A program made the translations under genes and the position numbers. DNA of 64,000 nt from a virus (Duplodnaviria > Caudoviricetes), in IMG/VR virus record IMGVR_UViG_3300021399_000133, positions 1-64,000 of that record; one strand, given 5' to 3'. Of the stretch, positions 412 to 35,975 are shown in pieces. A model generated the notes under the pieces. The model was not told where the DNA came from, did not search any database, and saw nothing but the letters and a program-made list of their open reading frames with translations. Each line of letters begins with the position of its first letter. Position 1 is the stretch's first letter.

Positions 412-915
412 ATGATATTTTCATTACGTCGTTTATATTCTACGTCTGATACTCCGTCGGATGTAGCTCAGGGTTCAGGTCAGGGTCAAGGAGGCAAAAG
501 AACTAGGAAGGGAGGAAATAAGAAGGGAAATTCTAATCCCAAGCCTAGATCTAACAACAAGTCTAAACCAAGAACTAAGCCTCAGTCGGGTTATTCTATT
601 TCAGCTCCTAATTGGAATGGAACAACTTCAACAACAGCTGGGGTAGGAGTACAATCAACGCCTAATCCTGGATCTGAATTAGTACCAACCTCTGTTCCTC
701 CCACAACACCTAAGAAACCAGTTAAGCCAAATAAAGTCCTTCGATTTATTAAGAATAACAAGAAGGCAATCGGTTGGACTGCGGCGGGTGTTAGTGCGGC
801 AGCTGGATTAGGTTATGGTATTAAGAAGTTGCATGATAAGAAGAAGGAGGAAGAGCGTTTAGCCAAGAACAGGGAATTGCAGGAGTCGATTGTTAATGGT
901 AAGGTTAAGAAATGA
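412..915 (+). CDS. putative head-cargo protein; basic low-complexity N-terminus, C-terminal Gly/Ala TM segment and Lys tail
   Basis: starts MIFSLRRLYS (shared motif); ends KKAIGWTAAGVSAAAGLGYGIKKLHDKKK. Confidence 0.7.
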   Translation: MIFSLRRLYSTSDTPSDVAQGSGQGQGGKRTRKGGNKKGNSNPKPRSNNKSKPRTKPQSGYSISAPNWNGTTSTTAGVGVQSTPNPGSELVPTSVPPTTPKKPVKPNKVLRFIKNNKKAIGWTAAGVSAAAGLGYGIKKLHDKKKEEERLAKNRELQESIVNGKVKK

Positions 916-1355
916 AGTTATCGTGGAGTTTACCAGGATCGAGGAATTTAGAGAGTGAGTTAGAGTTCAATGGTCTCTATGGTTCATCTATTCCATCATC
1001 GTTTTGGTCTTTCTTATGTTTAGAGGAGGAATTTTACGGGACATGGAAAGGAACAGGTTTACATTACAATTCATTTTTGCCTTATTCTGATATTTCCGAG
1101 TCGATAAAAGATTCCTCTCCATCAGTCTTACAGCTCTTATACAATTCGGGTTCTGGCATTAGGTATGATGTTTCTAGTCAAGTCTTTATTGGTGGTGGGT
1201 CAACTTGGTTAGAATTAAAAGATGCGGTCCTAAGTCTACTCGGGCAGGCGTATCGTGAGAAATTAGACCCACGAACTTACATTAAGAAAGAGGATTGGAA
1301 TAGAAATAAGCGTTATCTTTTGGCATATAAAAATTTCATCCTCAAACAGTTATAG
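912..1355 (+). CDS. hypothetical protein
   Basis: 147-aa ORF, ATGA overlap with previous gene, ends TAG. Confidence 0.65.
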   Translation: MKLSWSLPGSRNLESELEFNGLYGSSIPSSFWSFLCLEEEFYGTWKGTGLHYNSFLPYSDISESIKDSSPSVLQLLYNSGSGIRYDVSSQVFIGGGSTWLELKDAVLSLLGQAYREKLDPRTYIKKEDWNRNKRYLLAYKNFILKQL

Positions 1356-1358
1356 GTT

Positions 1359-1838
1359 ATGCGGTTATCTAGGAAAGTTTTATATTTCATCTCATCAAAG
1401 GGGGAATTAGAGAAGTCAATCCTAGTTCCGTCGATTCCTGATAATTTTTTAACAAGGGGAAAATTTTGTGATTGGCAGACTCAGAGAATTAGGTTATATG
1501 AAAGTCCTAGTGATGGATTGTCGGCAGGTTGGATTGGAGAAAATCTGACAGGCGGAGAATTCTATGTTTATCGGGCCAAGAATATAAGATCTGAGAGCCT
1601 ACTAAAGCCAACTGTGTCTGAAGTTCCTTATGCTTTATTAGTTCCAGAATGGTGGTACTTAGGGAATCTTTATCTTGAAAACCTAGGGAAGATAAAAGTC
1701 ACTGGAGAAGGAGAAAAGAGGTTATATCATTATGGAAAGAGGAGTACTAAGGCATGGATTAGAACGTGGAAGTGGCAAGAAATTTTAAAACCTTGGGAAA
1801 AATCAAAGCTTTTACTATCAACGGAGAAGCTTAAATAA
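1359..1838 (+). CDS. hypothetical protein, possibly ADP-ribosyltransferase-like fold
   Basis: RLYESPSDGLSAGWIGENLTGGEFYVY...EVP...EWW loosely resembles Arr-type ART cores; weak similarity. Confidence 0.55.
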   Translation: MRLSRKVLYFISSKGELEKSILVPSIPDNFLTRGKFCDWQTQRIRLYESPSDGLSAGWIGENLTGGEFYVYRAKNIRSESLLKPTVSEVPYALLVPEWWYLGNLYLENLGKIKVTGEGEKRLYHYGKRSTKAWIRTWKWQEILKPWEKSKLLLSTEKLK

Positions 1839-1850
1839 CTTTACGTTCAT

Positions 1851-2573
1851 ATGAATTTAATAAGACAAAAATCCTTCACTATTCAGGAGGGAGGTCCAAA
1901 GAAGAAAGCCTCATTTCTTAGAGAACTTGGAGCTAAAACAGCGCTGAGTTCATTAATTGGTTTATTTCCTAGTACACTTGTTGGGTCAGTTGTTGGACTT
2001 CGTGCTGGTTCGGATTTGAATAGTGCAAAAGAAGGTTTAAAGTGGGGTGCTCTTAGTTTCTGTAGTATTGAGGCTTTTGCAGCGTTATGGGGAGCTCTTG
2101 ATGCAGTATTTACTAGAGCAGGTTATCACAGAAGAAATGCTGAGAATGTAGTAGACACAAATGAGTTTATTGACTTAGTATATAAGCAGTCAACTAGAGA
2201 TGATAAGGACCTAGATACAGAAAATTCGGCTACCCTTCACAGATATATTAACGAGAATAAGGATCCAAAGCAGTTCATGATTAATGCTGCTTTTGCTTAT
2301 GGTTATTGTTTGATCCTTCTAAATAAGCCAAGTTCGACAGTCTTAGATGGATTTAATGAGCACTTGGAGTCTATGGTACAGTTCAATAGAGAGGCGGATT
2401 ATGCTGCTCAACCTAGTAGAGATGGTTTTGTTGTTCTTGTCCGTGCTCCTAGAATTGAAGATGTGGCTCATATGTTCGTTGATATCATTTCAGAGTGTCA
2501 TGTTCCAGTTAATTTTATTTCATCTAAGAAACTGGAGCAATATAAGGCTAAGTTTGAAGGCCAAATTCGATAA
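1851..2573 (+). CDS. putative head-cargo protein with N-terminal RQKxF motif and hydrophobic hairpin
   Basis: MNLIRQKSFTIQEG; two Gly-rich hydrophobic segments follow. Confidence 0.75.
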   Translation: MNLIRQKSFTIQEGGPKKKASFLRELGAKTALSSLIGLFPSTLVGSVVGLRAGSDLNSAKEGLKWGALSFCSIEAFAALWGALDAVFTRAGYHRRNAENVVDTNEFIDLVYKQSTRDDKDLDTENSATLHRYINENKDPKQFMINAAFAYGYCLILLNKPSSTVLDGFNEHLESMVQFNREADYAAQPSRDGFVVLVRAPRIEDVAHMFVDIISECHVPVNFISSKKLEQYKAKFEGQIR

Positions 2574-3611: not shown

Positions 3612-3666
3612 TCCTATGGTGAATTTGAGATAAGAATTCTACTGTTCGATCAGGCCATAGGATCTA
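3612..3666 (+). ncRNA. 55-nt tRNA-mimic element, copy A
   Basis: tcctatggt/gccatagga 9 bp; gaattt-GAGATAA-gaattc; ctg-TTCGAT-cag; then t-CTA. Confidence 0.75.
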
Positions 3667-3777: not shown

Positions 3778-4134
3778 ATGATTATTTTAAGACAAAAGAC
3801 CTTTAATTCTAAGTCAATGAAGGCGCTTAGAAATGCCGTTGATACTAGTATTGGTAAAAATTGGCACAAAGAAGCTTCTAAATATTTTAAGCCTAATATT
3901 ATTGGTGATGGATCTGTTAACAATTTAAAAAGTTGGGGCAGAAGTCTTCAGAAAACTCCCGTTACTGATATAAAAACGCTCAATGGTAGAATCAACAGAA
4001 AAGGAATGTTTGAAAATAGACTGAATTTAAGACGTAAGAATCCTACTATTCCATCAGAGCAGCGAGAGTTGTTAGATTATATTGATAAAGACAATATTAA
4101 ATTAACAAATCTTAGAAAGACGGATTGGCTTTAA
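3778..4134 (+). CDS. basic putative head-cargo protein
   Basis: MIILRQKTFNS motif; Lys/Arg-rich. Confidence 0.7.
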   Translation: MIILRQKTFNSKSMKALRNAVDTSIGKNWHKEASKYFKPNIIGDGSVNNLKSWGRSLQKTPVTDIKTLNGRINRKGMFENRLNLRRKNPTIPSEQRELLDYIDKDNIKLTNLRKTDWL

Positions 4135-4276: not shown

Positions 4277-6160
4277 ATGGGAAAATACGGTAGTTACATT
4301 AATCAGACAGACCCCACGAAGAGTATAGAGGAGGAGTTAAAGGGTGTTGATTTACGTCGTCAATACACTTCTTTAACTGATCGTGAGAAGGAGTTAGTAT
4401 TTGCCAAGATTAAGGGCTACAGTATGATTCCTCCGACGATTGAGCGTTTATATTCTGACACTTATTATTTAGGTGGGGAGAAGTTTTTCAATGGTGGTCG
4501 TAACATATTTGACTTTTGGAAGAACATGTTGAGTAAGGATGTTTTTTCTGGTTCATTTTTTACGAGGAAGCCATATTTAGTTTTATCGGGAGCCATTGGT
4601 ATAGGTAAGTCGACTATTACCAGGTTATGTATGGCTATGACTTTGTGTAAGTTATTATGCATGAAGGATCCGTACAAGACATTAAACATTGTCCCCAAAA
4701 TTTTATCTTTCTTAATTGCCCACCGTAACGAAAACAGTGCTGAAGTTGAGTTTAAGCGTTGGTTATTGGTGGATGTCATGTCGAATTCTCCTTTTTTCCA
4801 CAACGTTAAGCCCAGTGCATTCAAGTACAAGGTAGTCACATCTGGTCCTAGGGGTTCGATGGGTTTAGGTAATGACTTGATTTTTGCGACCCTAGGTGAG
4901 ATTAATTTCTGGCCGGGTGAGACAGGTAAGACAGCATTATCGACGACCCTAATACGTTTCAAGTCTCGTTTTTCCAAGGAGCAGTTAGAGTTAGTTGGTC
5001 ATTTTATCATTGACTCATCGGCTAGGGGTGCGACTGATGCGACTGAGTGGTTTAAAGAGAATACGCCGTCTGAGTTATATTATTCGTGTACTCCAGCTCA
5101 TTATGAAGTTAGGCCTGGGATGTATGAAGAGTCGGCTGGTAGGACATTTAGGGTTTTTACTGGTGATGGTGGTTCTATTCCTCCTCAAATATTGCCGAAG
5201 GATTTTGAGCCAGATCCGACGAAGTTTGATCCTTCTAAGATTATCAAGGTACCAATTCAGCTTCTTCCCGACTATAAAATGAACCTAGTTAAATCTCTTC
5301 AGGACTTATCTGGTATTTCGACAGGTTCTAGTGATTTATTCTTTGGTGGTGATATTTCATGTATTAAGTCTGCCTCCACGATTAAGAATTATGTGCCAGA
5401 GGTTATCACTATTGACTTTTACGATAAGAATGACAGGATAATAAAGAAGTTAGAGCCAATGTTATCAGTTATTCCCATCAACACCAAGATATATTTAGGT
5501 TTAGACTTAAGTGCAGCTCAAGGTGGTGATGCGACAGGTATTAGTGCTTGTATATTTGACAAGTGGGTAGAAGTTGGTGGAATAAAGCAGCCGAAGATAA
5601 GATGTTTGTTCATGTTAGCGGTAAAGAATAAGGAGGGTCAAGAGTTATCATTATATCATATCGAACAATTGATTCAGGATTTGAGTCGAAAATATGATGT
5701 AACGGTAAGTGCAGACCAAGCTTTTTCTAGAGGTATATTTCAGATGTGCATGAGAGAAAACATTAAGACGTACGGTAGAATTTCGACTGATAATGTTCCA
5801 TGTGAGCCAGCCTTATATTTAAAGTATATTCTTCAGCAGGGTTTTATAACTTTGCCAGAGAATTTACGTTTTCAGAGAGAGGCGGCGGATTTATATTATA
5901 CAGCAAAAGGAAAAGTAGATCATCCAAAAATAGCGTCTAGAATTCTTGATAATACGGGAGAGGAGCCAGAGAAAGGTAGTAAAGATGTATGGGATAGTTT
6001 ATGTCAAGCTTCATATTCTCTTAAATTAGCAATCGACAGCGGAGAGTATGATAACGGTGTAGATCTATCAATTAAGACCTTTGATATGGCGACTACAAGT
6101 AATAAAGAAAAAACTAGAGAGACGTTCCAGAATATGTTGGAGTCTATTTATTCTTTCTAA
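4277..6160 (+). CDS. terL: terminase large subunit
   Basis: Walker A SGAIGIGKS, Walker B-like FATLGE, RNase H-like YLGLDLS and KDVWDSL; 627 aa. Confidence 0.92.
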   Translation: MGKYGSYINQTDPTKSIEEELKGVDLRRQYTSLTDREKELVFAKIKGYSMIPPTIERLYSDTYYLGGEKFFNGGRNIFDFWKNMLSKDVFSGSFFTRKPYLVLSGAIGIGKSTITRLCMAMTLCKLLCMKDPYKTLNIVPKILSFLIAHRNENSAEVEFKRWLLVDVMSNSPFFHNVKPSAFKYKVVTSGPRGSMGLGNDLIFATLGEINFWPGETGKTALSTTLIRFKSRFSKEQLELVGHFIIDSSARGATDATEWFKENTPSELYYSCTPAHYEVRPGMYEESAGRTFRVFTGDGGSIPPQILPKDFEPDPTKFDPSKIIKVPIQLLPDYKMNLVKSLQDLSGISTGSSDLFFGGDISCIKSASTIKNYVPEVITIDFYDKNDRIIKKLEPMLSVIPINTKIYLGLDLSAAQGGDATGISACIFDKWVEVGGIKQPKIRCLFMLAVKNKEGQELSLYHIEQLIQDLSRKYDVTVSADQAFSRGIFQMCMRENIKTYGRISTDNVPCEPALYLKYILQQGFITLPENLRFQREAADLYYTAKGKVDHPKIASRILDNTGEEPEKGSKDVWDSLCQASYSLKLAIDSGEYDNGVDLSIKTFDMATTSNKEKTRETFQNMLESIYSF

Positions 6161-6322: not shown

Positions 6323-7012
6323 ATGGCAAAAGAAAATTCAATTATTATATTAGGAACGGCTCATTTAAGTTCTACGCCGGGTAAGTGTAGTCCAGATAAG
6401 TCGTTAATAGAGGCTCGGTATAGTCGGGAAATCGTCGAAGACATCAAATCCATCCTTCTCGGTTATGGTTATGAAGTTTTAGTTGATTATCCCGCCCTAG
6501 ATCCGTTGCCAGAGATTAAGTCCTCATCATACAAGACAGAGCAATTAAGGGAGTTATCATGGCGGGTGAAGTTTGTCAATGATATAGTAAAGAAGAACCC
6601 CAAGAAGAATGTAATTTACGTTTCTGTTCACGTTAATGGGGCAGGTAGTGGTGCGTCTTGGATGGGAGCTCGTGGTTGGAGTGCTTATACAACGCCGGGG
6701 AAGACAAAGTCAGATCAGTTAGCGTGTGATTTATACTGGGCGGCTAATAAGTATTTAAATCAGGAGTACAAGTCAACATTTGATTCGAGTGATGGTAAGC
6801 AAAGACCAATTCGAACCGACATGACTGATGGTGATCCTGATATGGAGTCTAATCTTTACGTCTTAGCTAAAACTTTATGTCCAGCGGTTTTAACTGAGAA
6901 TTTATTTCAGGACAACAAGAAGGATGTAGAGTTTCTTTTGAGTGACGTAGGTAGACATCAGATAGCTCGGATTCACGTAGAGGGTATTATTAAGTATATA
7001 CAGAGATGTTAG
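6323..7012 (+). CDS. N-acetylmuramoyl-L-alanine amidase (Amidase_3)
   Basis: Zn-ligand motifs IILGTAH, IEARY, VSVHVNG, VLTENLFQDN. Confidence 0.9.
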   Translation: MAKENSIIILGTAHLSSTPGKCSPDKSLIEARYSREIVEDIKSILLGYGYEVLVDYPALDPLPEIKSSSYKTEQLRELSWRVKFVNDIVKKNPKKNVIYVSVHVNGAGSGASWMGARGWSAYTTPGKTKSDQLACDLYWAANKYLNQEYKSTFDSSDGKQRPIRTDMTDGDPDMESNLYVLAKTLCPAVLTENLFQDNKKDVEFLLSDVGRHQIARIHVEGIIKYIQRC

Positions 7013-7614
7013 GCAGTCATAATTCCTTCACTTATTTACCGCCAAGGATTCCAATATTCTCTTGGTTTGAGTCGTTATGGAAGTGTCAAAGGTTATCCAT
7101 CTCAGAGCAATATGAGAGGGGTGTCAGGTTTTTTGATCTCCGCCTAGTTTGGTCTTGGACTCGGAAACGTTGGGAGATTTGTCATGGTTTAGTTCGTGTT
7201 AGGGGGATTTACTTTAGGACGGCTGAAGACATTAAGCGTTATTTTTCTAAGTTTCCAGGTTCTACTTATCGGATTGTTTTAGAGAGGAAACACTGGAACA
7301 ATAAAGAAAAATTCATTAAAGATTTCAAGACGGCTATAAGTCAAGATCCCGCCATTCGAGCTATTATATTAAAGCGTCCCTGGTACTATGTATATTGTGA
7401 CTCTTTGGTATCTAAGGGGATGAAAGATTATTGTGTCAGGTTGTTTGGTTGGAATGTAAATAAGAGCTTTTGGACCAACATTAAGGAAGGGAATTTTAAA
7501 CCAAACTTAACTATAAAGAAGTGGGCAGAGAGTCATAATCCTTCTTTAACGCAGTCTGACATTGATGATAAAACCATTATATATTTTATGGATTATGTTG
7601 ATATTACGTCATAA
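7006..7614 (+). CDS. phosphatidylinositol-specific phospholipase C X-domain protein
   Basis: GSHNS and CQRLSISEQYERGVRFFDLRL signature, HG motif. Confidence 0.85.
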   Translation: MLGSHNSFTYLPPRIPIFSWFESLWKCQRLSISEQYERGVRFFDLRLVWSWTRKRWEICHGLVRVRGIYFRTAEDIKRYFSKFPGSTYRIVLERKHWNNKEKFIKDFKTAISQDPAIRAIILKRPWYYVYCDSLVSKGMKDYCVRLFGWNVNKSFWTNIKEGNFKPNLTIKKWAESHNPSLTQSDIDDKTIIYFMDYVDITS

Positions 7615-7828
7615 GTTCTTCTCTAAATCTGCTGTTGGTCGAGATATTGTGCCTCCCGATATAGCAGAAAAGGGTCGAAAAGAGGGTGTAGTTCAGAAAG
7701 ATAAGTCAGGTCATTGGAGGATTATATCATACAAAACTAAGCCTCCTACTTTCTGGAATTCAACCTATCAGACCAAGGAGAAAGCGGAAGCAGCATTACG
7801 TGGTTATCAGGCAAATAAACATGGATAA
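7595..7828 (+). CDS. small basic putative head-cargo protein (start revised to ATG 7595)
   Basis: MLILRHKFFSK motif at revised start. Confidence 0.7.
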   Translation: MLILRHKFFSKSAVGRDIVPPDIAEKGRKEGVVQKDKSGHWRIISYKTKPPTFWNSTYQTKEKAEAALRGYQANKHG

Positions 7829-7830: not shown

Positions 7831-9405
7831 ATGTTAGTTAGTCGAAATATCCCAGTTAATATTAAAGATTTTGCTCCGAAGGATGTTCATAGTTTCATCA
7901 CTTTTGGTAGTAGAATGATATATAAAGATGAGGTTACTTCTACTGTTGGTCGGGGGAATATATTTGCGGTAAAGCAAGGAAAATATGATGAGGCCTATAT
8001 AAATAAGCTTTTGAATAAAGGTGTAACTATCAACTTCCCCTTTAATAACAGAGACTATATTTCATCAGATTACGTTGAGGTATATAAATCTGGGAAGAAG
8101 TATTATAAGACATTCGATATAAAGGCGACAGTTGGCAAGGACGGTACTATTACTTTCTTTGATAAATTTTACTATTATCCTCTGACTCATATCCTACCAA
8201 AATATCGAAAACCTGATGCTACCTGGAACTTTAAATTTCTTAGGTATGAAAATGAAGACCAGGAAGAGTATATAATTCCTGTCATTACTTTTCCGACTAA
8301 GAAAGAGGAGTGGGAGGATATTTTGAAGGCGTTTCTGGAGTTTATGGTTTTTATTAAGGTTCTTTATGGCTCTTGGTTTAAGATTATTTTAACGAAGGAG
8401 AAAGAAGGAGAAGAGAAAACCTTTAGTGAAATTACTCCAGATACTGATTTTAAGAATACCATACTTTCTTTCGCTCCGACAGTATTTGGAACAGTCTATC
8501 GATTCGTTTTCTATCCAAAAATAATGCAGGATATTGCTCAGAGGTTAAATGATGAAGTTTGTAAGAGTTCAGGGTCAGGTGAAATCTCTCTTAGAAATAG
8601 ACTTTTAGGGTATTGTACAAAAACCTATAAAGACGTCTACTTTGCTAATATTGGATCTGGTTCTTGTTTCTTGGATACTGAAGGAATAAGAAAAATGACG
8701 CCTGAAGCAGTAGATACAATCATGAAAGAGGGTGATTCGAAGAGATTAAGAACGGAAATAGACTGGTGTAAGAAAGCGCTTGAAGATAAGAAATACTTAG
8801 TAATGTATAATGATAATGATTCTTCTGTGGCTATTGCTCATGAAGTAGGTCATTATCTTATAGCGAAAGACCCTAAGTTAAAGAATGTTCAGTTACGTGA
8901 TAAAGCAGGCGTATTTTCTGAAGATTTTATTTCTTTTGCTTCATATGTTCTAGGTGGTATTTCTGGTTTTCTATCACTTAAGGCGGGTGTGATTGGTGAA
9001 ATTATATCTGGTTTAGTGGCGTTTGGTCTTAGATCTCCTCTCCTCTTTACTGAATTTTTAGCTTCTTACAAGGGTTATCAACTTTTGGAAGAGAAGATAG
9101 GATGTAGTGAGACAGAACTTAAAAATGCTAAGAAATTTTATCGATTAGCCTGGTTAAGTTATTTAGGAAAGACAACTAAATTTATGTCAGAGGCTAGTGT
9201 TGGTCGGTTAATTGGTAAAGTAGCTAGTCGTGGAATTAAAGGAATAAAAAATAAAATAAAGAAGTATTCTGATATTCCCCAGTTAACAACACCAACAAAA
9301 CAGAGTAAATTTTCTAACTTTCGGAATAAGTTCAATAATTTTAAAGAAGATCCTACAACCCAATCTGTACTAAAAGGGGCTAAATCTTTTATTTTTGGTA
9401 AGTAA
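7831..9405 (+). CDS. two-domain protein; C-terminal membrane zinc metallopeptidase-like domain after internal KTFS
   Basis: AIAHEVGHYL (HExxH), two TM segments, EFLASYKGYQLL (ExxAS); EEKTFSEI linker. Confidence 0.7.
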   Translation: MLVSRNIPVNIKDFAPKDVHSFITFGSRMIYKDEVTSTVGRGNIFAVKQGKYDEAYINKLLNKGVTINFPFNNRDYISSDYVEVYKSGKKYYKTFDIKATVGKDGTITFFDKFYYYPLTHILPKYRKPDATWNFKFLRYENEDQEEYIIPVITFPTKKEEWEDILKAFLEFMVFIKVLYGSWFKIILTKEKEGEEKTFSEITPDTDFKNTILSFAPTVFGTVYRFVFYPKIMQDIAQRLNDEVCKSSGSGEISLRNRLLGYCTKTYKDVYFANIGSGSCFLDTEGIRKMTPEAVDTIMKEGDSKRLRTEIDWCKKALEDKKYLVMYNDNDSSVAIAHEVGHYLIAKDPKLKNVQLRDKAGVFSEDFISFASYVLGGISGFLSLKAGVIGEIISGLVAFGLRSPLLFTEFLASYKGYQLLEEKIGCSETELKNAKKFYRLAWLSYLGKTTKFMSEASVGRLIGKVASRGIKGIKNKIKKYSDIPQLTTPTKQSKFSNFRNKFNNFKEDPTTQSVLKGAKSFIFGK

Positions 9406-9410: not shown

Positions 9411-10157
9411 ATGAGAGTTATACGACAAAAATATTTTTCTGCCAAAGAAGTTTTTAAAGGCGCTCTATTAGGATTTGGAACAGGAATCTTCTTTGGTAAA
9501 TCTGTATCTCTTGCTGTTGCTGCTGTTAATAAAGCTTTTGGTAAGAGTTATGGAAAAGCATTTGCACTAACTACTCTGGGTTTAGGAATAATAGGAGCAA
9601 TTATTGGGGGAGTCACTGCTTATTCCATTAGTAATATAAAGAATAAGTTAGAGGATTTTATAAATTGGAAAAGAAAAAATTATAAAGCCCTTGGTAGATT
9701 AGTTAAAAACAGCATTCCCTCTAAATCAGAACTAAACAAAATTAAAATGTTAGTAGATGCAGAGGAGAAATTTAGAAGCCTATGTCCTATTATTCATCAT
9801 CAGCCAGACCTAGGTTATGTAATTAGATATCCACAAACGGATGCCGAGTGGATAGACTTTGTTGGTGCTTCTCTATGGGCTACTAATGCAAAAAACCTAG
9901 GAATTCCAGATGTCTCAACTATTCCCGTTGTTAGTATAAGTCTAGGAGTTGACACTAGAAAAAATAAACCAATCTACTACGCTTTATTCGACCCAATTAA
10001 ACAGACTTATTGGATTGATAAAAATAAAAAGGGATCATTAGAGGATTTTTTCTATCATGCTGTCAAAGATTCTGGAGATAATCGAGAACTAAGGAGAGTT
10101 ACTGGTTTTAAAGATTATAATAAAGCTCTTCTTAATTTTATTGAGGAGAATTTATAA
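9411..10157 (+). CDS. motif-bearing Gly-zipper protein, paralog of 11046-11798
   Basis: MRVIRQKYFS; hydrophobic hairpin; shared DF..WK..N.KAL..L..NS.P and LCP.I..EWID.V.A blocks. Confidence 0.75.
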   Translation: MRVIRQKYFSAKEVFKGALLGFGTGIFFGKSVSLAVAAVNKAFGKSYGKAFALTTLGLGIIGAIIGGVTAYSISNIKNKLEDFINWKRKNYKALGRLVKNSIPSKSELNKIKMLVDAEEKFRSLCPIIHHQPDLGYVIRYPQTDAEWIDFVGASLWATNAKNLGIPDVSTIPVVSISLGVDTRKNKPIYYALFDPIKQTYWIDKNKKGSLEDFFYHAVKDSGDNRELRRVTGFKDYNKALLNFIEENL

Positions 10158-10168
10158 AATTAGATATT

Positions 10169-10567
10169 ATGAAAGTAATTAGATATAAGACTTTTTCAGA
10201 TAAAGGAAAAGATAGACCAGCATTAAGTACTGTTAATTCTCATCGTGGTCTTGGTAGATCTCTTGTACTTGGTGGTTTATTTGGTGCTGGTGGTGGCTTA
10301 GCGGGGAAGATGAAAGCTGATGACCTAGACGCTAAAGGTATGACAGATGAAGCAATTGTTCGTAGATCTAGTAAACATGCAGCAAAAGTAGGCGGTGTGA
10401 CTGGAGCTGTTAGAGGAGCTGCGTATGGTGCTTTAGCTAGTGGTCCGGTTGCAATAATTCCAGGTGCTGTTGCTGGTGGTATTCTCTCAGGTGCGGGTGC
10501 TTATCTTGGTGCTAAGAAAAATGCGCAAACTCGTATTAAGAAGAGAAAAGAATTAATGAATAAATAA
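10169..10567 (+). CDS. motif-bearing Gly-zipper protein (SHRG/GAKKN family)
   Basis: MKVIRYKTFSD; SHRGLGRSL..G; GAKKN. Confidence 0.78.
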   Translation: MKVIRYKTFSDKGKDRPALSTVNSHRGLGRSLVLGGLFGAGGGLAGKMKADDLDAKGMTDEAIVRRSSKHAAKVGGVTGAVRGAAYGALASGPVAIIPGAVAGGILSGAGAYLGAKKNAQTRIKKRKELMNK

Positions 10568-10581
10568 ATAGGAGGATTTTT

Positions 10582-11049
10582 ATGGTTATTTATAGATATA
10601 AGACTTTCTCAGATGAAGATAAAAAGATTTCTCTTAAGTCAGTGAAATCTCATCGTGGTCTTGGTAGATCTCTTGCTCTTGGTTATCTCCCTGCCTCTTT
10701 AGCCGCACGTAGTACAAAGAAACTTGCTAATAAGCTTGATGAAGAGGGCGCATCTGAAGCAGAAATTATTGAGAAAGTAGGAAAAGCAGGTGGAAAGCGC
10801 GGTGCTATTGCTAATGCTGCTACTTTTGGTACTCTTGGTGCTGCTAACGGAGGTGCTCTTGGTCTATTAGCTGCTGACGCCCTTAAGAAAAGTACGAAAA
10901 AAGGGGCAATAGCTGGTAGTATTCTTGGTGGTGTAGCTGGATTATCTACTGCAGTGCCTGGCTATATTGCTGGTAAAATGGGTGCTAAGAAAAATGCACA
11001 AGATAGATTGAGAAAGCGTAGAGAGCTTGAAAGAGACTTGAGAAAATGA
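10582..11049 (+). CDS. motif-bearing Gly-zipper protein (SHRG/GAKKN family)
   Basis: MVIYRYKTFSD; shares DNA block ctcatcgtggtcttggtagatctcttg with the previous gene. Confidence 0.78.
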   Translation: MVIYRYKTFSDEDKKISLKSVKSHRGLGRSLALGYLPASLAARSTKKLANKLDEEGASEAEIIEKVGKAGGKRGAIANAATFGTLGAANGGALGLLAADALKKSTKKGAIAGSILGGVAGLSTAVPGYIAGKMGAKKNAQDRLRKRRELERDLRK

Positions 11050-11798
11050 TAGTACAAAGGCAATATTCGCTTAATTCTTTCATTAATATAGTAAAAGGAG
11101 CTAAAGCAGGCGCAATAGTGTCAGTGTCTTTAGGTCTTCTTGTTGGTGCTGTTGTTTCTCTCTTTGCAAAAAGTGGAAATAGACTTAGATCATTTCTTCT
11201 TGGTTTAGGAGTTACTACGTTAGGTGGGGCGATTGTTGGTGCATTGTGTTCAGTAAAGTCTAAGTCTGGTTTGGAAGATAAGATAAAAGACTTTGTTAGA
11301 TGGAAGAATGAGAATGCTAAAGCTCTTGAAACTCTAGCTACCAATAGTCAACCACCTTCATCTGATTTAGGAAAGATTAAGCGATTAATTATAGAGGAGA
11401 AGGATATTAGAAAGCTTTGTCCTGAAATTTATAATAATGATGCGGGCTATTATGATATTTATCTCCCATCTTCTCCGGCTGAATGGATTGATGTAGTTGC
11501 TGCTTATGAATATTCTATTTTTCAGAGTGAGGACTATGTAATTCCAGTAAAGGGAAAAATTCCATGTGTTTCGGTTATCAATGAAGCACTTTTTGAAAAC
11601 GTTGAGTTTATTTTGTTCTATGACCCAATTTTGAAAACCTACAATTTTTACGGTAAACCATGCACTCTTAAGGATTTCTTTTTAAGGGTTATTGATTTAT
11701 GTAAGAAAGAAGGTATTGATGTAGAGTTTTCTGATCCTGAGTCATTTGAAAAATACAATCAAGCTTTTAAAGGTTTGATAAATAAATATCTAAAGTGA
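11046..11798 (+). CDS. motif-bearing Gly-zipper protein, paralog of 9411-10157
   Basis: MIVQRQYS; hydrophobic hairpin and shared C-terminal domain. Confidence 0.75.
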   Translation: MIVQRQYSLNSFINIVKGAKAGAIVSVSLGLLVGAVVSLFAKSGNRLRSFLLGLGVTTLGGAIVGALCSVKSKSGLEDKIKDFVRWKNENAKALETLATNSQPPSSDLGKIKRLIIEEKDIRKLCPEIYNNDAGYYDIYLPSSPAEWIDVVAAYEYSIFQSEDYVIPVKGKIPCVSVINEALFENVEFILFYDPILKTYNFYGKPCTLKDFFLRVIDLCKKEGIDVEFSDPESFEKYNQAFKGLINKYLK

Positions 11799-12598: not shown

Positions 12599-12624
12599 GT
12601 GTCTTTTTGTGCAATTCTTACTTA

Positions 12625-12676: not shown

Positions 12677-12698
12677 TTTATATATTAAAAATTCGATT

Positions 12699-15122: not shown

Positions 15123-15132
15123 ATTAAAGATT

Positions 15133-15974: not shown

Positions 15975-15997
15975 TTCAACCCTCAACTAACATAAAG

Positions 15998-24752: not shown

Positions 24753-24758
24753 ATTTAT

Positions 24759-25289: not shown

Positions 25290-26369
25290 ATGAGTGAGAT
25301 AGTTTATAGAGGTCTCAAACTTACCTCTCTTAAAGGTTGTAAATATTTTTCAGTTAAGGAGGGATCCATCTGCTCTTTGGTAGAAAATCCGTCTACATCA
25401 ACACTAACCTTGACCTATACGAGTGGTAGTACTTCTCAATCTCTATCAACTGTTTTAGGAATTCCACAGGTCGGTAAAAGTGTAGAGATGTTACCAACCA
25501 ATATAGCAAAACGATTCTCTACAACAACAGTGTCTCTGAATGGTTTGAAGTTAAGGAAAATGACTTCAGATACACATACGATCAATATTATTATTGTTAG
25601 TGATTCAGAGTCTAGAGTAGTTCAAACTTATAATTATACGACAATTGTAGTGTCTGACGAAGATGCTGAAAATGAAGAGTTTATCAATTATATATTCTAT
25701 TCAGGTAACCTCACATATCTTCAGCCGGTGGGTCCTAAGCCTAAATGTTGGAAGTTTAGAAATTTTCCCAAGATCACTATAAAGGATAAAGATTTAGTTC
25801 TTGAATCTACTTCCACAACTGTTTATTCTCTTCGCCGTCGTTATGATGATTATGTTATTCGAGCAGTTGATTATCAAGACCAATTCATACTAGAGATCCG
25901 AAAAATTCTCAATGATTATGGCTTGGAACTTGTGAGAATGAACAAAGAAACTACTCTAACTAAAACTTCCCACGTTATTTATCAATTTTCTCAAACTCCG
26001 ACAAAAATTCATAATCCTTTCTATGCCAATGAGCTAGATGAGGTTATAAGTCAGAGATTACCTGTCGAATTTTATCTTAGAGCGACAGATATGGTATTGT
26101 TCTTTGACTTTAAAAACAAGTATAATAATGTTGATCTCTTAACTAATTTCTGTGAGTTTAAAACGACAGATAAATATGGAAAGAGGTGGACAGCTGCAAT
26201 AAAGTGGGGAGGAATAACAGAAGATTTCAATCACTTGTATCAGTCGGATGATAACTCTAATTTCTCGTTTCAGTGTTCTTTTAGATGTGAACTTTACTTT
26301 TATGAATGTATTGATTCGAGATATGAGTTCCTGCAAGAGATAATTTTAAATCTTGACTCAGATTTATGA
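25290..26369 (+). CDS. putative tail terminator/neck protein (gp15-like)
   Basis: beta-rich C-terminal half (LPVEFYL..FQCSFRCELYFY); position; inference only. Confidence 0.5.
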   Translation: MSEIVYRGLKLTSLKGCKYFSVKEGSICSLVENPSTSTLTLTYTSGSTSQSLSTVLGIPQVGKSVEMLPTNIAKRFSTTTVSLNGLKLRKMTSDTHTINIIIVSDSESRVVQTYNYTTIVVSDEDAENEEFINYIFYSGNLTYLQPVGPKPKCWKFRNFPKITIKDKDLVLESTSTTVYSLRRRYDDYVIRAVDYQDQFILEIRKILNDYGLELVRMNKETTLTKTSHVIYQFSQTPTKIHNPFYANELDEVISQRLPVEFYLRATDMVLFFDFKNKYNNVDLLTNFCEFKTTDKYGKRWTAAIKWGGITEDFNHLYQSDDNSNFSFQCSFRCELYFYECIDSRYEFLQEIILNLDSDL

Positions 26370-26743
26370 TAACTTTTAGACAGAAAAAGACGCTGGTTCA
26401 AGACTTAATGCCGGAAGCTATTCAATACCTGAAAGATAATGGCATTGATGTAAAGATTATAACTCCGAAGGAAGCTGACGCAGTCTCTAGGGTAAACTCT
26501 AAAGCTATGGTTCTAGTCTCCTTTAAGAAAAACGAGTTGGGTTATTATCAAATACAAGTTCAAGATAAGGAGTTATATAATTACACGCAAAAGTTAATCA
26601 GAGATATTCTTAGGATGAGAATTACAAATATCGATAGAGAGCATAGAGTGATTACTGCCGAATGTGATCATAAAGGCATTGCTCTTGATATTATTGAGGT
26701 TCTCGCTAAGAAGTATGATTTATCAGTTGTTTATAAGAAATGA
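26366..26743 (+). CDS. small globular protein with degenerate motif
   Basis: MITFRQKK; ATGA-coupled. Confidence 0.7.
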   Translation: MITFRQKKTLVQDLMPEAIQYLKDNGIDVKIITPKEADAVSRVNSKAMVLVSFKKNELGYYQIQVQDKELYNYTQKLIRDILRMRITNIDREHRVITAECDHKGIALDIIEVLAKKYDLSVVYKK

Positions 26744-27339
26744 TTAAGTTCAGACAAAAAACTTTCTCAGAGTATGATGCAATGAGAAGTTTATATGTTG
26801 AATTGATGAAGGATAAGTTTGCAAAGCAGAAATATGGTGTTATTGATTCTAGTGTTCTTATACCAGTACTGAAGGGAAACAATATAGTCATTGAACGCTT
26901 TGTAATATCTACATCATTCGCTCATAAAGATACTTATCGGATGTACCTTAAGATTGGAGCTAAAGCTAAGTTACCTGATGAAGTTAGATTGCCTGGGAAA
27001 ACTCAATATAAGCCCATTGGCGGTATTAACTTTAATCTTAGTGGATCAACTACTCAGAAACAATTTAGTGATGAAAGTTCTACGCCTCTATTTCGTCAAA
27101 AAGTATTCGGAGGAGGTGGAGGAGATAAGAAGAAAACATTCCCACTAGTTTCAGGTAACTATCAAGGTCCTAATGTCAACTTTGGTGTAGAAGTAACTAA
27201 GTTGTTAGGTGAAGCGATTAAGTATGATAAGAGAGAGCGTAGTCTGGTGTTGGAATTTGACAGTATTGAAGATGCTATTAAAGCTCTGAATATCCTTCCT
27301 TTTGGCATTAATTATAAGATATATTTACTTAACGCATGA
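26740..27339 (+). CDS. motif-bearing globular protein
   Basis: MIKFRQKTFSE, internal QKQFSDE and FRQKVFG. Confidence 0.75.
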   Translation: MIKFRQKTFSEYDAMRSLYVELMKDKFAKQKYGVIDSSVLIPVLKGNNIVIERFVISTSFAHKDTYRMYLKIGAKAKLPDEVRLPGKTQYKPIGGINFNLSGSTTQKQFSDESSTPLFRQKVFGGGGGDKKKTFPLVSGNYQGPNVNFGVEVTKLLGEAIKYDKRERSLVLEFDSIEDAIKALNILPFGINYKIYLLNA

Positions 27340-27557
27340 TGAAGATAAAAAGATTCTCTGCCACTAAAATTCTTAACACAAATATGGGTTTAGGATTTAG
27401 ACGTGGGCGGAAGTATGATACTGACTTAGATCGACTGGGTAGAATGGATACTTCGCAGAGAGAACTTTCTAGAGTCAATCAGTTAGGTAGTGAAATGAGG
27501 AAACTCAGATCAGAATTAAATAATGAGAGGTTAGGAATATGGCAACATACAGACTAA
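27336..27557 (+). CDS. small basic motif-bearing protein
   Basis: MMKIKRFSA. Confidence 0.65.
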   Translation: MMKIKRFSATKILNTNMGLGFRRGRKYDTDLDRLGRMDTSQRELSRVNQLGSEMRKLRSELNNERLGIWQHTD

Positions 27558-27871
27558 GAAGAAAAACATTTGGTATGGCAGATGCTGGTCAAAGAGCTGC
27601 TGGTGGTGCAATGGAGGGTATTGGAAAAACAATGGACTCTAACTTGGGTGGTGTTGCTGGTGGTATAGCCGGTGCTGCAACTGTCGGCTCTGCAATAGGT
27701 GCAGGTCTTGGCTCAGCAATAGGCTCAGTTGTTCCAGTTGTAGGTACAGCAATTGGTGGTACTGTTGGTGGAGCTCTCGGTACTGGTCTCGGTTATATGG
27801 CTGGCTCTAAAGTAACTAGAGGAGTCGGTCAAGCTCTTACTGAGTCTGGTCAGGATTTACAAGCAGTTTAA
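27539..27871 (+). CDS. motif-bearing Gly-zipper protein
   Basis: MATYRLRRKTFG; long GxxxG array. Confidence 0.78.
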   Translation: MATYRLRRKTFGMADAGQRAAGGAMEGIGKTMDSNLGGVAGGIAGAATVGSAIGAGLGSAIGSVVPVVGTAIGGTVGGALGTGLGYMAGSKVTRGVGQALTESGQDLQAV

Positions 27872-27875
27872 TATT

Positions 27876-28940
27876 ATGATAAGGTTTAGACAGAAAAATT
27901 ATAATGCGGCTGCTATTATGACTGGACTGAATGTTCTTGGTTTGGGTGCTACTGGTGCTCAAATGATTCAAGCAGATCAACAAGGAAAAGAGCAAGAGGC
28001 ACAGTCAAAAGCAATGGAAGAGCAGATGAAAAGACAAAACAAAGCACTAGAACGTATTGCCCGAAATTCCGCCAAGAATCCTAGAGCCGCACAACAAGCA
28101 GCCGAAGTTGTTTCTCAAAAAGGTTTTTCTAGTAAAGGACACTATATTCTAAAGAGATTTGGTGTTCCGGCCACTGCAGTAAAGAATCTTTTTAGCTGGA
28201 ATAATATAAAAGGCTTGGGAAAAGATTTAGGCAATGTTGTTTGGAATAATAAGAAAACTATTGCTGGATGGGGAACAATGGGAGCAGGTATTGCTGGTGG
28301 TTCTTATATTGCTAATAAGGCAATTCAAAATGATATGGAGAAACATGGAATTGAATTACCTAACAACAATCAACAAAAAGCTTATTCTGCTGAAGGAACC
28401 TTAATTGGTAACTCTTTTAAAACAGGTTTAGGCAAAATTGGTGGTGTTGCTAGTGGTTTAGGTTTTGGTGCAATATCTCCAACTATGTCTTATTTATCAG
28501 AACGCCAGGCTCTTATTGATCAAGCAAACCAAACACGACAGACAGCAAATAATACTAATACGCCTCCTAAATTTAGACAGAAGCAGTATGGAATGGCTAT
28601 GCCTTTGAGGAGTATTGCTAAAGGTTTTCGTGCTTTTAAAAGAAACCCAATGCAAAGTATATTAGGAACGGCTTCTTCCTTTTCTGGAACTGGTGGAGTG
28701 AAAGGATATAACAGTTTTGCAAATAGCTTAGCAAATTCAACTAACAGTGAATTATCTCAGGCTGCAGGTAATTGGTTGAAAAATCATAAAACTTTAGGAT
28801 TAGCTGGAACAACTGTAATAGGCGGTTCAGCCCTTGGAAGTGTTTATTCAGCCGGAGATAAAGCAGTTAGAGGAACAGCTAATGCACTTGATCCAAATGC
28901 TTTCGCTTATGAAAACTCTAAACAGCAACAAATTCAGTAA
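27876..28940 (+). CDS. motif-punctuated polyprotein of Gly-rich amphipathic modules
   Basis: RQKNYN, QKGFS/LKRFG, QKAYS and KFRQKQYG each precede a Gly-rich segment. Confidence 0.75.
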   Translation: MIRFRQKNYNAAAIMTGLNVLGLGATGAQMIQADQQGKEQEAQSKAMEEQMKRQNKALERIARNSAKNPRAAQQAAEVVSQKGFSSKGHYILKRFGVPATAVKNLFSWNNIKGLGKDLGNVVWNNKKTIAGWGTMGAGIAGGSYIANKAIQNDMEKHGIELPNNNQQKAYSAEGTLIGNSFKTGLGKIGGVASGLGFGAISPTMSYLSERQALIDQANQTRQTANNTNTPPKFRQKQYGMAMPLRSIAKGFRAFKRNPMQSILGTASSFSGTGGVKGYNSFANSLANSTNSELSQAAGNWLKNHKTLGLAGTTVIGGSALGSVYSAGDKAVRGTANALDPNAFAYENSKQQQIQ

Positions 28941-28943
28941 GCT

Positions 28944-30566
28944 ATGATTAAATTTAAGCAAAAAGAATATAATGAGGCTGTCGGAGTAGGAAAGAAGGTT
29001 ATCAATTTAATTAAAAAGAATCCACTTCAAACGGCAAGTCTTGGAGTTGCTACTGCTGGTTTAGGTGTTCAAGTACATAGATCTACTCGAGACAGAAGCT
29101 ACCAAAAAGATCAGTTAAAAGCAATGAATAACCTTACAAATTCTCTTGGTAAAGTTGACAGATCTTTTAAAGACTTAGGAAAAAAGGAAGTTGACCGAGA
29201 GAAAAAAATGGATGATATGATGAAGAAATTTAGGCTCTTTTCTATTCAGGACGGTGGTTACAAAGGAGGCAAGCGTAGTGCCGGTGGTATTCGGCCGGTT
29301 TTAGTTGGTGCTGGTGTAGGTGGAGCCCTCGGCGGAATCATGGGTGGAGTTGGTGAAAAAACTTCAATAGGCGTCGGAGCATTAATTGGTGCTGGTCTTG
29401 GAGCATTTGTTGGCTGGATGTCTAGTTTGGCCGATAAGAGTGTTTTCAATACTGGTGGATCAACCAATGCAAACTCCTATCTCCTAATTAAAGCCATTGA
29501 GGAAGCTTATCAGCCTAATTCTTATGATGAAGATGAAACGACTATCTCTGAAACTACAACTGACGAATATGGTCACAGTAGAACAGTAACAAGAAGAACA
29601 CAGAATAACAAGAAAGAGGTACCAAATCCTAGGGGTATTGTCTTTGATGTTGATGGTGACCCGAGACGTTATGTAGTGTCAGTCCTTTATACTGGTAATG
29701 TTTTGGTTATGTTCATTAATAATCCAAACAATTATGAGTTAAGAACATTGAACACCCTTCTTGACAGTTATTGCTACGCATATAAGAACGCAGACTATTA
29801 TTCGAATAAAGTTTCTAAAAATGTTTATACTGTTGATGTTAATGTTGTGGCTGGTACTGAAACCTATCTTGCTCAAAAGATAATTGAAAGTGGTATCAAG
29901 ATCAATATTGTAACAGGAAACAAATTTAATACAAAATTTAGACAGAAGAATAATAGTGTTTTAACTGATACTATTACTGGGGCTACGATTGGTGCTACTG
30001 CTGGTGGTTTTACTGGTTCTGTATTTAGAGATAAAACTAAACAAGTTTTTGGAATAAATCAGAATAATAAAAACGGTGATCAGTTAGCAGCATTGGCAGC
30101 TATTGGAACTGGTACTATTATTGGAGCTGCTCTCGGTTTCTTAGGTGGATCTATTAAGGAGGTAGCTACTAAATACAATCGTAAAAACAGTGTTGATCAA
30201 AGACTTATGAAGGACGTTGTTGAAAACCTTAAGAAATCTAATCTTAAGGAAGGTACACAATTTACTAGAGATCCGAAACAAGCAACTACTCTTAAGACGA
30301 AGATTAGTATTGTAATTTCTAAGGTTTCTGGTGAGCTTCGTCTTTTGGTTAACACTGTTGCAGATCCTAAACTTGAGAGATTGACTAAGCAAATGGAGAA
30401 GAATATTCCTAACACTAGCGTAGTTAATCATCATGTATCAGATAAATTTAACGATATAACTATTTCAACAATATCAGATTCTTCAGCAGATTCTGGATTA
30501 ATTGCAGGCATTGCAGAATTCTATATTCGCAACGGTTACCCAGTATATCTTGTTGAAGTAGGATAA
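28944..30566 (+). CDS. motif-punctuated multi-module protein (Gly zippers plus globular domains)
   Basis: MIKFKQKEYN, KFRLFS and KFRQKNNS each precede a Gly-rich segment. Confidence 0.75.
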   Translation: MIKFKQKEYNEAVGVGKKVINLIKKNPLQTASLGVATAGLGVQVHRSTRDRSYQKDQLKAMNNLTNSLGKVDRSFKDLGKKEVDREKKMDDMMKKFRLFSIQDGGYKGGKRSAGGIRPVLVGAGVGGALGGIMGGVGEKTSIGVGALIGAGLGAFVGWMSSLADKSVFNTGGSTNANSYLLIKAIEEAYQPNSYDEDETTISETTTDEYGHSRTVTRRTQNNKKEVPNPRGIVFDVDGDPRRYVVSVLYTGNVLVMFINNPNNYELRTLNTLLDSYCYAYKNADYYSNKVSKNVYTVDVNVVAGTETYLAQKIIESGIKINIVTGNKFNTKFRQKNNSVLTDTITGATIGATAGGFTGSVFRDKTKQVFGINQNNKNGDQLAALAAIGTGTIIGAALGFLGGSIKEVATKYNRKNSVDQRLMKDVVENLKKSNLKEGTQFTRDPKQATTLKTKISIVISKVSGELRLLVNTVADPKLERLTKQMEKNIPNTSVVNHHVSDKFNDITISTISDSSADSGLIAGIAEFYIRNGYPVYLVEVG

Positions 30567-33832: not shown

Positions 33833-33839
33833 GTTTATA

Positions 33840-34364
33840 ATGATAGTACAAAGACAAAGATGTTATACGGGCCTAGTAAAGAAAGTTTCGGCAAAGACTC
33901 AACGAAGTATATTAAATAAAGCTGAACAATTTTTTAAATCTAAGCCCGGCCAAACATATCTCAAACATCAACTAAAAGCAAGAGAATCTGCCCTAGGAAA
34001 AGAACTATTAAAAAGATCTGGTAATGTAGAGTCTGGTATGGCTACATTAAGTGGAATAGTAAAGGGGGCTCCATATAATCCAGGAAAGACTACTAAAGAA
34101 TTGATTGGTTATGGAATTAAACATCCAGAAGTAGCCTTTGGAGAAGCCGCAGACAAAGCGTTAGGTGTAATAGTGCCCGCCTATAATGCTTCACCAGTAC
34201 CCGTTGGAAAAGCTATTGCATTTGCTTATCCCACTAAAAATCGATATTTTAGATTGGCCGGTCAAAGATGGAATACAGGTGGCGCAGGAAGAGTCGTTGA
34301 ACAAGGAATTAACTCAGCCGCTTTGAGTGCTGGGAGACTAGGAAATTCAATACCAATGTTATGA
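33840..34364 (+). CDS. basic motif-bearing protein (start revised to 33840)
   Basis: MIVQRQRCYTG. Confidence 0.7.
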   Translation: MIVQRQRCYTGLVKKVSAKTQRSILNKAEQFFKSKPGQTYLKHQLKARESALGKELLKRSGNVESGMATLSGIVKGAPYNPGKTTKELIGYGIKHPEVAFGEAADKALGVIVPAYNASPVPVGKAIAFAYPTKNRYFRLAGQRWNTGGAGRVVEQGINSAALSAGRLGNSIPML

Positions 34365-35602
34365 TTAAATTTAGACAAAAACAGTATACAATTCAAGAAG
34401 GTCATTATACTGGACCTAAAGATATTGATAAAGTCCCTGGCGCAGTAGAAGTAATAGCAAAGACGGCTGGGGCAGGAGCAGGCCTTGGAGCTGTTGTATC
34501 GACAGTTCTTAAAGATACCTCTATGATTGAAGGTGCATTGACAGGAGGTAAATGGGGAGCCGTTGGTGGTGTTCTTCTTAAGCTCTTTCTCAATTATCTT
34601 CACAACCCAATGACAAGAGTTAAGTATCAAGAGGTAGATAAAAACATTCGTCGATCTTTTGGTGTATTTCAAGTTTCTGGTGTAACAGTCGGTGATTCTA
34701 TTTCAAAGAGAGCTAGTATTGATGAGAAGTTTAGTTTTAATGATAGGAACGTAACTTCCTATAAACTCAACTTTGCAGTGGCTGATGATACTATTACTAT
34801 GTACACTTTTGGAATGACTAATAAAGAGCTGGTGGATACTTCTAACATTCTTGATTACTATACTAAAAAATATTCAGGTATGAGTTATTCATCTAAGTTG
34901 TTAAACCAGAAGATGAATTCTTATGCTGTTGATATAGTATTCACTAACTATCAGGTCATTTCTAATTTTATCCTGGAGTTGTCTGAAAAGTTGCTTACTA
35001 AGATTAATCTCCTCGACAACAAAGTAATAGTAACAAATCGCCTTGCATCAACTCTTCCCGCAGATTTAGAGGATGAAGAGAAGACATTTTCAGAACCACA
35101 AGCCCTTAACAAATATGACTTGATGAAGGTTTTAGGTAAGGGAGGTGCTCAGGCTCTTGGAAACATTAAGCAGGGTTTCAATGCTTCTATGGGATTTGCT
35201 TTACTTGGTATGATTCAGGAGGGTCTTAAGAAGATTGGTATGGATGACCTAGTTAAATCAGGAATGCCAGCACCACGTGAAGCCTTTGGTAATTCATATC
35301 TTAAGGATGCTCTCAATAAACTTTACTATATTGAGGGAGTTCATTATACGATAGGTGACAAGACTGCTCCAGATAACATCTCTATGGTTAACGGTTTGTT
35401 TATTGTCACTATTCAGAAAGACGACAAGAAGAAAGTTGATGCAGTAGATAATAATTTCTATAAAGCTGCCCAAAGGAGTATCAAGAGGACGGATTCAGGA
35501 AAGGTTATTGTCTATACTTATTCAATTAGGTCCAGACAGGAGATGGAATTCTTGTTAAAGAAACTCATGTCAACTAAAATAACCTTTAATATATTTGAGT
35601 GA
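34361..35602 (+). CDS. motif-bearing protein with Gly zipper and globular domains
   Basis: MIKFRQKQYTIQEG (compare 1851); internal EKTFSE. Confidence 0.75.
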   Translation: MIKFRQKQYTIQEGHYTGPKDIDKVPGAVEVIAKTAGAGAGLGAVVSTVLKDTSMIEGALTGGKWGAVGGVLLKLFLNYLHNPMTRVKYQEVDKNIRRSFGVFQVSGVTVGDSISKRASIDEKFSFNDRNVTSYKLNFAVADDTITMYTFGMTNKELVDTSNILDYYTKKYSGMSYSSKLLNQKMNSYAVDIVFTNYQVISNFILELSEKLLTKINLLDNKVIVTNRLASTLPADLEDEEKTFSEPQALNKYDLMKVLGKGGAQALGNIKQGFNASMGFALLGMIQEGLKKIGMDDLVKSGMPAPREAFGNSYLKDALNKLYYIEGVHYTIGDKTAPDNISMVNGLFIVTIQKDDKKKVDAVDNNFYKAAQRSIKRTDSGKVIVYTYSIRSRQEMEFLLKKLMSTKITFNIFE

Positions 35603-35603
35603 T

Positions 35604-35975
35604 ATGGTTATTCTACGGCAAAAAATTTATTCACAGAAAAAGACAGCAATGATCAGTCGAATTACAAACAAATTGGATAGAGAGAGAATTGAGGATTATG
35701 ATGTTTATGATTATGTTCCAAAAGATTCTATCTCAGTTACTGGTGATCTTGATAATTTTGCTATTTATCTACCCAGGGAATTTGAATATAGTCAGTATAG
35801 GATTGATGATAAGATTCGCTCCTTGGCACCACACATTAGAACAACTACTATTTCGGAGCGTGGTTTCTTTATTATGAAACTTTCCTCCAAGCTTACAGAA
35901 GATCAGCTATATAAATTAATTAAGTTTATTATAGCCGAAGAGGAATTCTGTGTTATAGTAGATATGGACGAATAA
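35604..35975 (+). CDS. small motif-bearing globular protein (start revised to 35604)
   Basis: MVILRQKIYSQ. Confidence 0.72.
   Translation: MVILRQKIYSQKKTAMISRITNKLDRERIEDYDVYDYVPKDSISVTGDLDNFAIYLPREFEYSQYRIDDKIRSLAPHIRTTTISERGFFIMKLSSKLTEDQLYKLIKFIIAEEEFCVIVDMDE

Follow-up and report, generated by a model that had tools for sequence, protein, structure and literature searches.

A candidate cleavable head-entry leader on about 27 proteins of an uncultured large myophage

About 27 genes in a 64,000-nucleotide stretch of viral DNA (the window) begin with a common N-terminal peptide of 8–12 residues, here called the leader, which is probably a cleavable head-entry peptide resembling that of phage T4 but with an aromatic instead of a Glu cleavage specificity. 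The window comprises the first 64 kb of the 89-kb virus record IMGVR_UViG_3300021399_000133, has a GC content of 37% with nearly every gene on the + strand, and contains the head and tail modules of a large myophage. Because a protease with the T4 gp21 fold is encoded in the middle of the leader-gene cluster and the leader ends in a very probable cut site, we consider it likely that the leader proteins are located inside the prohead. A preliminary description of this DNA had interpreted the peptide as an address label analogous to the T4 capsid-targeting sequence. For these same two reasons the analogy holds in broad terms, but what the data favour in the first place is a protease site; the address claim is weaker and draws on indirect signs, namely conserved upstream residues and half-leader families that lack the cut residue.

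The leader is concentrated in head modules. All 23 open reading frame (ORF) starts listed in the preliminary description carry the quoted peptide at an ATG located where the description places it, but the pattern written for them does not fit its own examples 412, 14730, 15133, 19838 and 24759. A strict rule set on the window (Met, one to six residues, then [KR]-x-[KRH]-x-[FY]-small) identifies a leader on 22 of 44 genes before 36 kb of the 89-kb contig, compared with 0 of 29 tail and other genes beyond that point (Fisher p 9e-7) and 0.18 of 44 predicted from shuffled sequences. As the window lacks most non-virion genes, a complete 353-kb relative with 74% capsid identity and a 42-kb head module served as a control. 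Strict leaders start 22 of its 48 head-module genes but only 2 of the 389 genes elsewhere (p 1e-21), so the motif is not equally common at non-virion ORF starts; because the rule was derived from the window, which has orthologues in common with the control, head-module counts are not independent, whereas the outside count is. Further relatives have leaders clustered in the same way. Looser counting, which asks only for a core [KR]-x-[FY]-small no more than about 12 residues from the start, adds genes 11046 and 27339, the portal gene (12699) and the scaffold gene (20726). The earlier estimate of about 25 tagged genes becomes about 27, and the "dozens" of tagged proteins amount to about 25–30 per genome. 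As the preliminary description had claimed for structural and lysis proteins, no leader is present on the large terminase (4277), amidase (6323), muramidase (11798), sheath-like (30592) or tube-like (43511) proteins. Pooling of 51 starts yields the logo Met, Ile, x, Leu/Phe/Ile, Arg/Lys, x, Lys, x, Phe/Tyr, Ser/small. Synonymous codon changes occur at every position of the motif, indicating that selection acts on the peptide, and apart from this shared start the proteins belong to many unrelated groups with few paralogue pairs. For gene 27539 a gene caller places the start 12 codons later (L098:18970), losing the leader; relatives favour the earlier start.

The same core, as [KR]-x-[FY]-S, also occurs inside the scaffold, at the capsid N terminus, at the portal start and in the protease tail, a feature that the preliminary description missed. 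The protease, the zinc-ribbon core protein, the scaffold and the capsid protein contain 19 internal copies against 0.8 expected, whereas copies elsewhere stay at background (13 versus 11.2 in tail genes; 84 versus 72 in non-head genes of the 353-kb relative). These four proteins are the ones that a gp21-type protease would be expected to process. Six internal copies in a 2,645-aa tail protein at 65907 (2.5 expected, p 0.04) and one conserved core copy near residue 200 of the sheath-like protein were not counted as sites. Asp and Glu make up 29% of the scaffold-like protein, and across 18 scaffold homologues Ser directly follows 232 of 492 Phe residues compared with a Ser content of 5.8%. The portal assignment derives from a weak profile match (E 2e-4) to the IME392 gene that follows the terminase gene. 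A single short motif directs phage T4 gp21 both in cutting the scaffold to pieces and in trimming the capsid and internal proteins (PMC9026906), and the distribution of sites here is that of the substrates of T4 gp21 and SPN3US gp245, with a different motif. Near the head genes of a distant relative, a 642-aa protein (L117:317-2245) has 18 aromatic-Ser sites versus 5.9 expected and is a possible second scaffold or polyprotein.

A model of the candidate enzyme matches T4 gp21 (Foldseek 5jbl, E 2e-4; Z 12.1, r.m.s.d. 2.6, 130 residues aligned), and residues H49, S135 and D161 align with T4 H85, S140 and D168 and are invariant in 127 sequences. D72 and W142 are invariant residues of the protease as well. 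Its motif sites, at residues 190, 203, 231 and 252, all lie past the catalytic domain, and the model places the first in a disordered linker directly following that domain, a position comparable to the C-terminal self-cleavage of SPN3US gp245 (PMC10052503). The leader end is very probably a site of cleavage by this protease. When the protease domain was modelled in complex with residues 1–31 of the 26740 product, the score was 0.07 against a mark of 0.32, and the result was not used as evidence. Protease residues 256–387 (window 19376–19770) form a conserved helical C-terminal domain for which no informative fold match was found; in the distant relative L106, a separate 308-aa gene before the scaffold gene resembles this domain alone.

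Comparison across capsid homologues indicates where the cut is likely to fall. The capsid model (pLDDT 55, low confidence) has an HK97 fold and matches the P1 head (9ukm, E 6e-7) and the S6 and T4 capsids, with residues 34–133 modelled too poorly to place the motif sites; capsid profile searches against PDB sequences and T4 gp23 gave no match. Capsid homologues with as little as about 16% identity were recovered by profile search, and 67 of 88 have F-[SA] in the 30 residues before the capsid fold, compared with 19% of background windows. Below 22% identity, 35 of 45 homologues keep F-[SA] and just 8 of 45 have Lys/Arg two residues before. Sites in the scaffold, protease tail and capsid protein co-vary by clade, as Arg-x-Phe-Ser in L106 and L110, a Lys-type site in L117 and Asn-Phe-Ser in L112, which is the expectation from protease specificity. 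Since Phe-Ser is constant while the basic residue is lost, cleavage would occur between the aromatic residue and Ser, and the predicted cut likely falls after Phe/Tyr.

Several observations suggest that the leader may be more than a cut site. Residues upstream of the core are acidic at internal scaffold sites and hydrophobic and basic at N-terminal sites, and the upstream part of the leader is therefore not needed for cutting. In the 26366 family this upstream half persists without the aromatic cut residue, with M, F4, [RK]5 and K7 kept in 17 of 17 orthologues. Half-leaders begin 4 of 33 head-module genes versus 3 of 389 genes elsewhere in the 353-kb relative (p 9e-4), a suggestive signal given that the single 26366 family could be structural. 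L106, with 30% capsid identity, has its own version of the leader on a block of small genes, and where genes have fused, 25 of 28 junctions retain the motif, some of them after loss of the Met; the first junction of gene 28944 keeps it. Residues 4 and 7 of the T4 leader function in targeting and residues 8 and 10 in processing, and an uncleavable T4 leader still targets (PMC9026906). By analogy with the T4 capsid-targeting sequence, the persisting upstream half fits a separable targeting part; whether the leader itself acts as a targeting address is, in our judgement, evenly balanced.

In the favoured mechanism, the last part of the leader, [KR]-x-[FY]-small, would be recognised by the gp21-type prohead protease that the phage itself encodes, with cleavage after Phe/Tyr. 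The enzyme would use the same site to break up the scaffold, shorten the capsid protein so that it begins at Ser63 and probably cut the portal, and would also release its C-terminal half from itself. Docking on the acidic scaffold core during prohead assembly is probably the task of the upstream part (Met, hydrophobic, x, hydrophobic, Arg/Lys, x, Lys), and binding of a basic leader to the acidic scaffold is a plausible route. Cutting would free about 25 proteins inside the head, some of which may be ejected with the DNA, although we place this last step slightly short of an even chance.

The leader could instead be a cut site only, such that head-internal proteins lose a short propeptide, their mature parts bring them in through basic charge and Gly-rich helices, and the upstream residues simply make a better substrate. 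The leader core is identical to the internal sites, most mature parts are basic (pI 9–10.6) and could bind the acidic scaffold unaided, and the Dar proteins of phage P1 have no consensus leader (PMC9024508). This explanation is nevertheless unlikely, as scaffold sites show that a hydrophobic and basic upstream part is not required for cutting, the upstream half is conserved where the cut residue is absent, and proteins of unrelated folds bear the leader, among them GNAT and ferritin-like domains in relatives. HK97-type proteases make Lys-Ser cuts, and a further alternative keeps the same system with a cut after Lys/Arg, the almost invariant residue of this clade, leaving x-Phe-Ser on the mature protein. 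Such a register is highly improbable: distant homologues lose the basic residue and keep Phe-Ser in capsid, scaffold and protease tail alike, and Ser following the cut is typical of gp21-type enzymes.

Alternatively, the four core residues could form a β-strand that is never cleaved, with scaffold repeats, capsid N-arm and cargo sharing a binding groove. Pairs of scaffold sites do recur regularly where repeats meet, the protease model shows β-strands at two of its sites, and in some relatives the motif lies within the first strand of the protease. By contrast, the placement of sites all along the scaffold, directly ahead of the capsid fold and behind the protease domain follows the T4-type processing pattern, and no other recurrent motif, such as hydrophobic-x-Glu, is needed for these positions, making an uncleaved assembly motif quite improbable. 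That the leader has nothing to do with the head, and reflects a Sec- or prepilin-like secretion or topology signal, initiation bias, a DNA cassette or chance, is barely credible. Some proteins have a basic start followed by Gly-rich hydrophobic stretches, some starts are prepilin-like and five leader starts are 73–76% alike as DNA, but the near absence of leaders from non-head genes, the synonymous variation at all motif positions and the many leader proteins without a hydrophobic stretch oppose such an origin, which would also leave the scaffold and capsid sites unexplained. Synonymous variation and confinement to the head module led us to reject a DNA cassette or initiation bias, and chance and a prepilin signal were rejected too. 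A class III prepilin signal calls for Gly before Phe, Glu at +5 and a hydrophobic helix next; here the residue before the aromatic is T, E, L, I, Y or Q, with Gly not among the six commonest, and most leader proteins lack an adjacent hydrophobic helix.

Other observations weigh against the cleavable head-entry leader that we favour. The scaffold-like gene of IME392 has no such sites, so the site rule ends somewhere within the capsid family, in which the cultured members are only the distant IME392 and EP_H11. Members of the 27876 family often have a bulky residue after the aromatic one and the second junction of gene 28944 has lost its Phe, indicating that the site is not always needed. The two protease strands, modelled with low confidence, mean that some motif copies may be structural. 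About 80% of SPN3US head proteins are uncleaved, and leader and head location hence need not coincide. To these is added the dependence between head-module counts noted above for the window and its control genome.

The closest known counterpart is the T4 capsid-targeting sequence of IPI, IPII, IPIII and Alt together with gp21; here too a gp21-fold protease with aligned His, Ser and Asp is present (PMC9026906, PMC9958956). Both systems place a peptide of about 10 residues at the N terminus of unrelated small, mostly basic proteins, repeat the same site through the scaffold and before the capsid fold, and have separable upstream and cut residues. They differ in the cut, predicted here at Phe/Tyr with Lys/Arg two before and made in T4 at (Leu/Ile)-x-Glu, and leaders here have no Glu at that position. 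The starts of T4 internal proteins in the T4 record share no motif with the leader, which marks about 27 proteins here, many of glycine-zipper membrane type, compared with three or four in T4. In addition, the protease here has a large extra C-terminal domain and no sequence relationship between the capsid protein and gp23 is detectable. Because two defining sequence features fail, the Glu cut and leader kinship, we do not file the leader and protease of the window as a member of the T4 system.

Jumbo myophages phiKZ and SPN3US offer a second comparison. In SPN3US, gp245 cleaves behind A-x-E, preferably with Ser as the following residue, and also cuts off its own C terminus (PMC10052503), and phiKZ gp175 and SPN3US gp245 share with the system proposed here a gp21-like protease, a site of P3-x-P1 form (third and first residues before the cut) with Ser next and C-terminal self-cleavage (PMC10052503, PMC5694885), as well as the portal among the substrates and many inner head proteins. 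The T4, phiKZ and SPN3US enzymes follow the same grammar, P3-x-P1 then Ser, as the motif here. In phiKZ and SPN3US, however, the cut follows Glu, and SPN3US has mostly long propeptides (111–254 aa) on about nine proteins, compared with short leaders on about 27 and a clear scaffold here. An N-terminal peptide of P1 DarB is sufficient to package cargo (PMC9024508), and the P1 capsid is the best fold match of our capsid model; P1 differs in lacking a consensus among its Dar proteins and in a capsid cut after Glu120. A literature search with limited coverage of subscription journals found no description of the motif, and no virion proteomics for the clade was found. The principle of a leader with a prohead protease is established and 30 years old, and the aromatic-ended variant is the new part.

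Table 1 Head and tail features of the window (leader genes are named by start position)
Feature	Position	Strand	Remarks
167-aa basic protein	412–915	+	Core motif at residues 7–10
240-aa leader protein	1851–2573	+	Two hydrophobic stretches
118-aa basic leader protein	3778–4134	+	
Large terminase	4277–6160	+	E 3e-77 versus annotated terminase of phage IME392; without leader, internal negative control
77-aa leader protein	7595–7828	+	Kept in relatives
Four leader genes	9411–11798	+	9411 and 11046 paralogues; 10169 and 10582 Gly-rich paralogues of 17377
Probable portal	12699–14399	+	Core motif at residues 10–13, Gly after Phe; kept in most relatives
Five leader genes	14730–16432	+	14730, 15133, 15243, 15516, 15998; 15516 has a second site at residue 20
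159-aa Gly-rich leader protein	17377–17856	+	His where a basic residue is usual
Prohead protease	18606–19835	+	Residues 1–165 T4 gp21 fold (model); H49/S135/D161; helical C-terminal domain
Acidic Zn-ribbon core protein, 286 aa	19838–20698	+	Four motif copies: N terminus and three strict internal
Scaffold-like protein, 736 aa, pI 4.1	20726–22936	+	11 motif sites, often paired at repeat boundaries
Major capsid protein	22966–24414	+	Conserved sites 37–40 and 60–63; predicted mature start Ser63 (420 aa)
Two Gly-rich leader proteins	24528–25283	+	24528, 24759
125-aa protein	26366–26743	+	Upstream half of leader only, without aromatic cut residue
Conserved block, five leader genes	26740–30566	+	26740, 27339, 27539, 27876, 28944
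Sheath-like gene	30592		Weak match
Three leader genes	33840–35975	+	33840, 34361, 35604; 34361 and 35604 fused in a relative, motif kept at junction
Tube-like gene	43511		Weak match

Most leader proteins of the window are small, basic and without a name (Table 1), and about 10 have Gly-rich hydrophobic repeats. PHROGs and Pfam scans named no head core protein and, among the leader proteins scanned, only 28944, as a glycine zipper; this gene (window 28944–30566) is a triple fusion whose modules are separate genes in relatives. The ESM Atlas gave no usable match for 26740 or 34361. In relatives, GNAT acetyltransferases and a DUF5856 protein carry the leader or a half-leader (L092:15263-15745, L094:14957-15343, L122:8840-9325, L094:12318-12734), and in a Jug-like genome one 200-aa protein with a full leader is encoded some 150 kb away from the head module (L120:5135-5737, − strand). 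The set of leader genes varies and shifts position among relatives, as does the variable and mobile set of T4-type internal proteins. The conserved block at 26366–28940 is more likely core head architecture than exchangeable cargo.

Proteins identical to the protease and capsid protein of the window are also encoded on a 330-kb contig, and the capsid protein is 84–85% identical to those of many 360–400 kb gut phage contigs in which both the portal gene and the protease gene are split. The same splitting has been reported for Jug (jumbo gut) phages (PMC12880540). The 360–400 kb relatives, which bear the same leader as the window phage, are probably Jug phages, and the host is presumably a Bacteroidales bacterium; source samples consulted in the analysis are probably from sheep rumen. 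As Jug phages are delimited by genomes of 360–402 kb and >90% identity among the main groups, compared with an 89-kb fragment and 84–85% capsid identity here, we describe the window phage, known from its 89-kb record, as a relative of that clade and not as a tested member. The Jug paper does not mention the motif (PMC12880540), and no cultured close relative of the window phage was found. Two contigs of the clade of the window phage (L115 and L116, 371–376 kb) are binned in bacterial genomes labelled Mycoplasmatota and Bacilli, probably by misbinning.

Three further features of the window lie amid or between these genes. Weak matches to a PI-PLC X domain (7006–7614) and a zinc metallopeptidase (7831–9405) stand among leader genes, both without a leader. 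A 70-nt direct repeat, 86% identical, occupies the gaps before gene 412 and the portal gene (291–360 and 12612–12681) and is a candidate late promoter. Intergenic elements of 55 nt occur at 3612–3666, 16441–16495 and 17899–17953, with paired ends, a tRNA T-loop-like heptamer and fold z-scores of −2.7, −4.8 and −1.3, respectively.

The gp21-type proteases of T4, phiKZ, 201phi2-1 and SPN3US cut after Glu, and an aromatic specificity with a basic P3 would widen the range of the family. How proteins are drawn into the prohead core has been called unresolved even for T4 (PMC9958956), and the natural leader variants, half-leaders and fusions offer a direct test of prohead recruitment. The leader also singles out about 27 genes that otherwise lack annotation as candidates for head-internal proteins, in a clade related to Jug phages, which are reported to make up about 1.1% of human gut metagenome reads. 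In widespread uncultured large phages, including abundant gut jumbo phages, the two-part leader could tentatively be a portable tag that loads 25–30 swappable proteins, among them glycine-zipper membrane-inserting proteins and acetyltransferases, into the head for ejection, a proposal against which the balance tilts at present. If it is true, sequence by itself would suffice to read the ejected proteome, and the tag would also function on foreign proteins.

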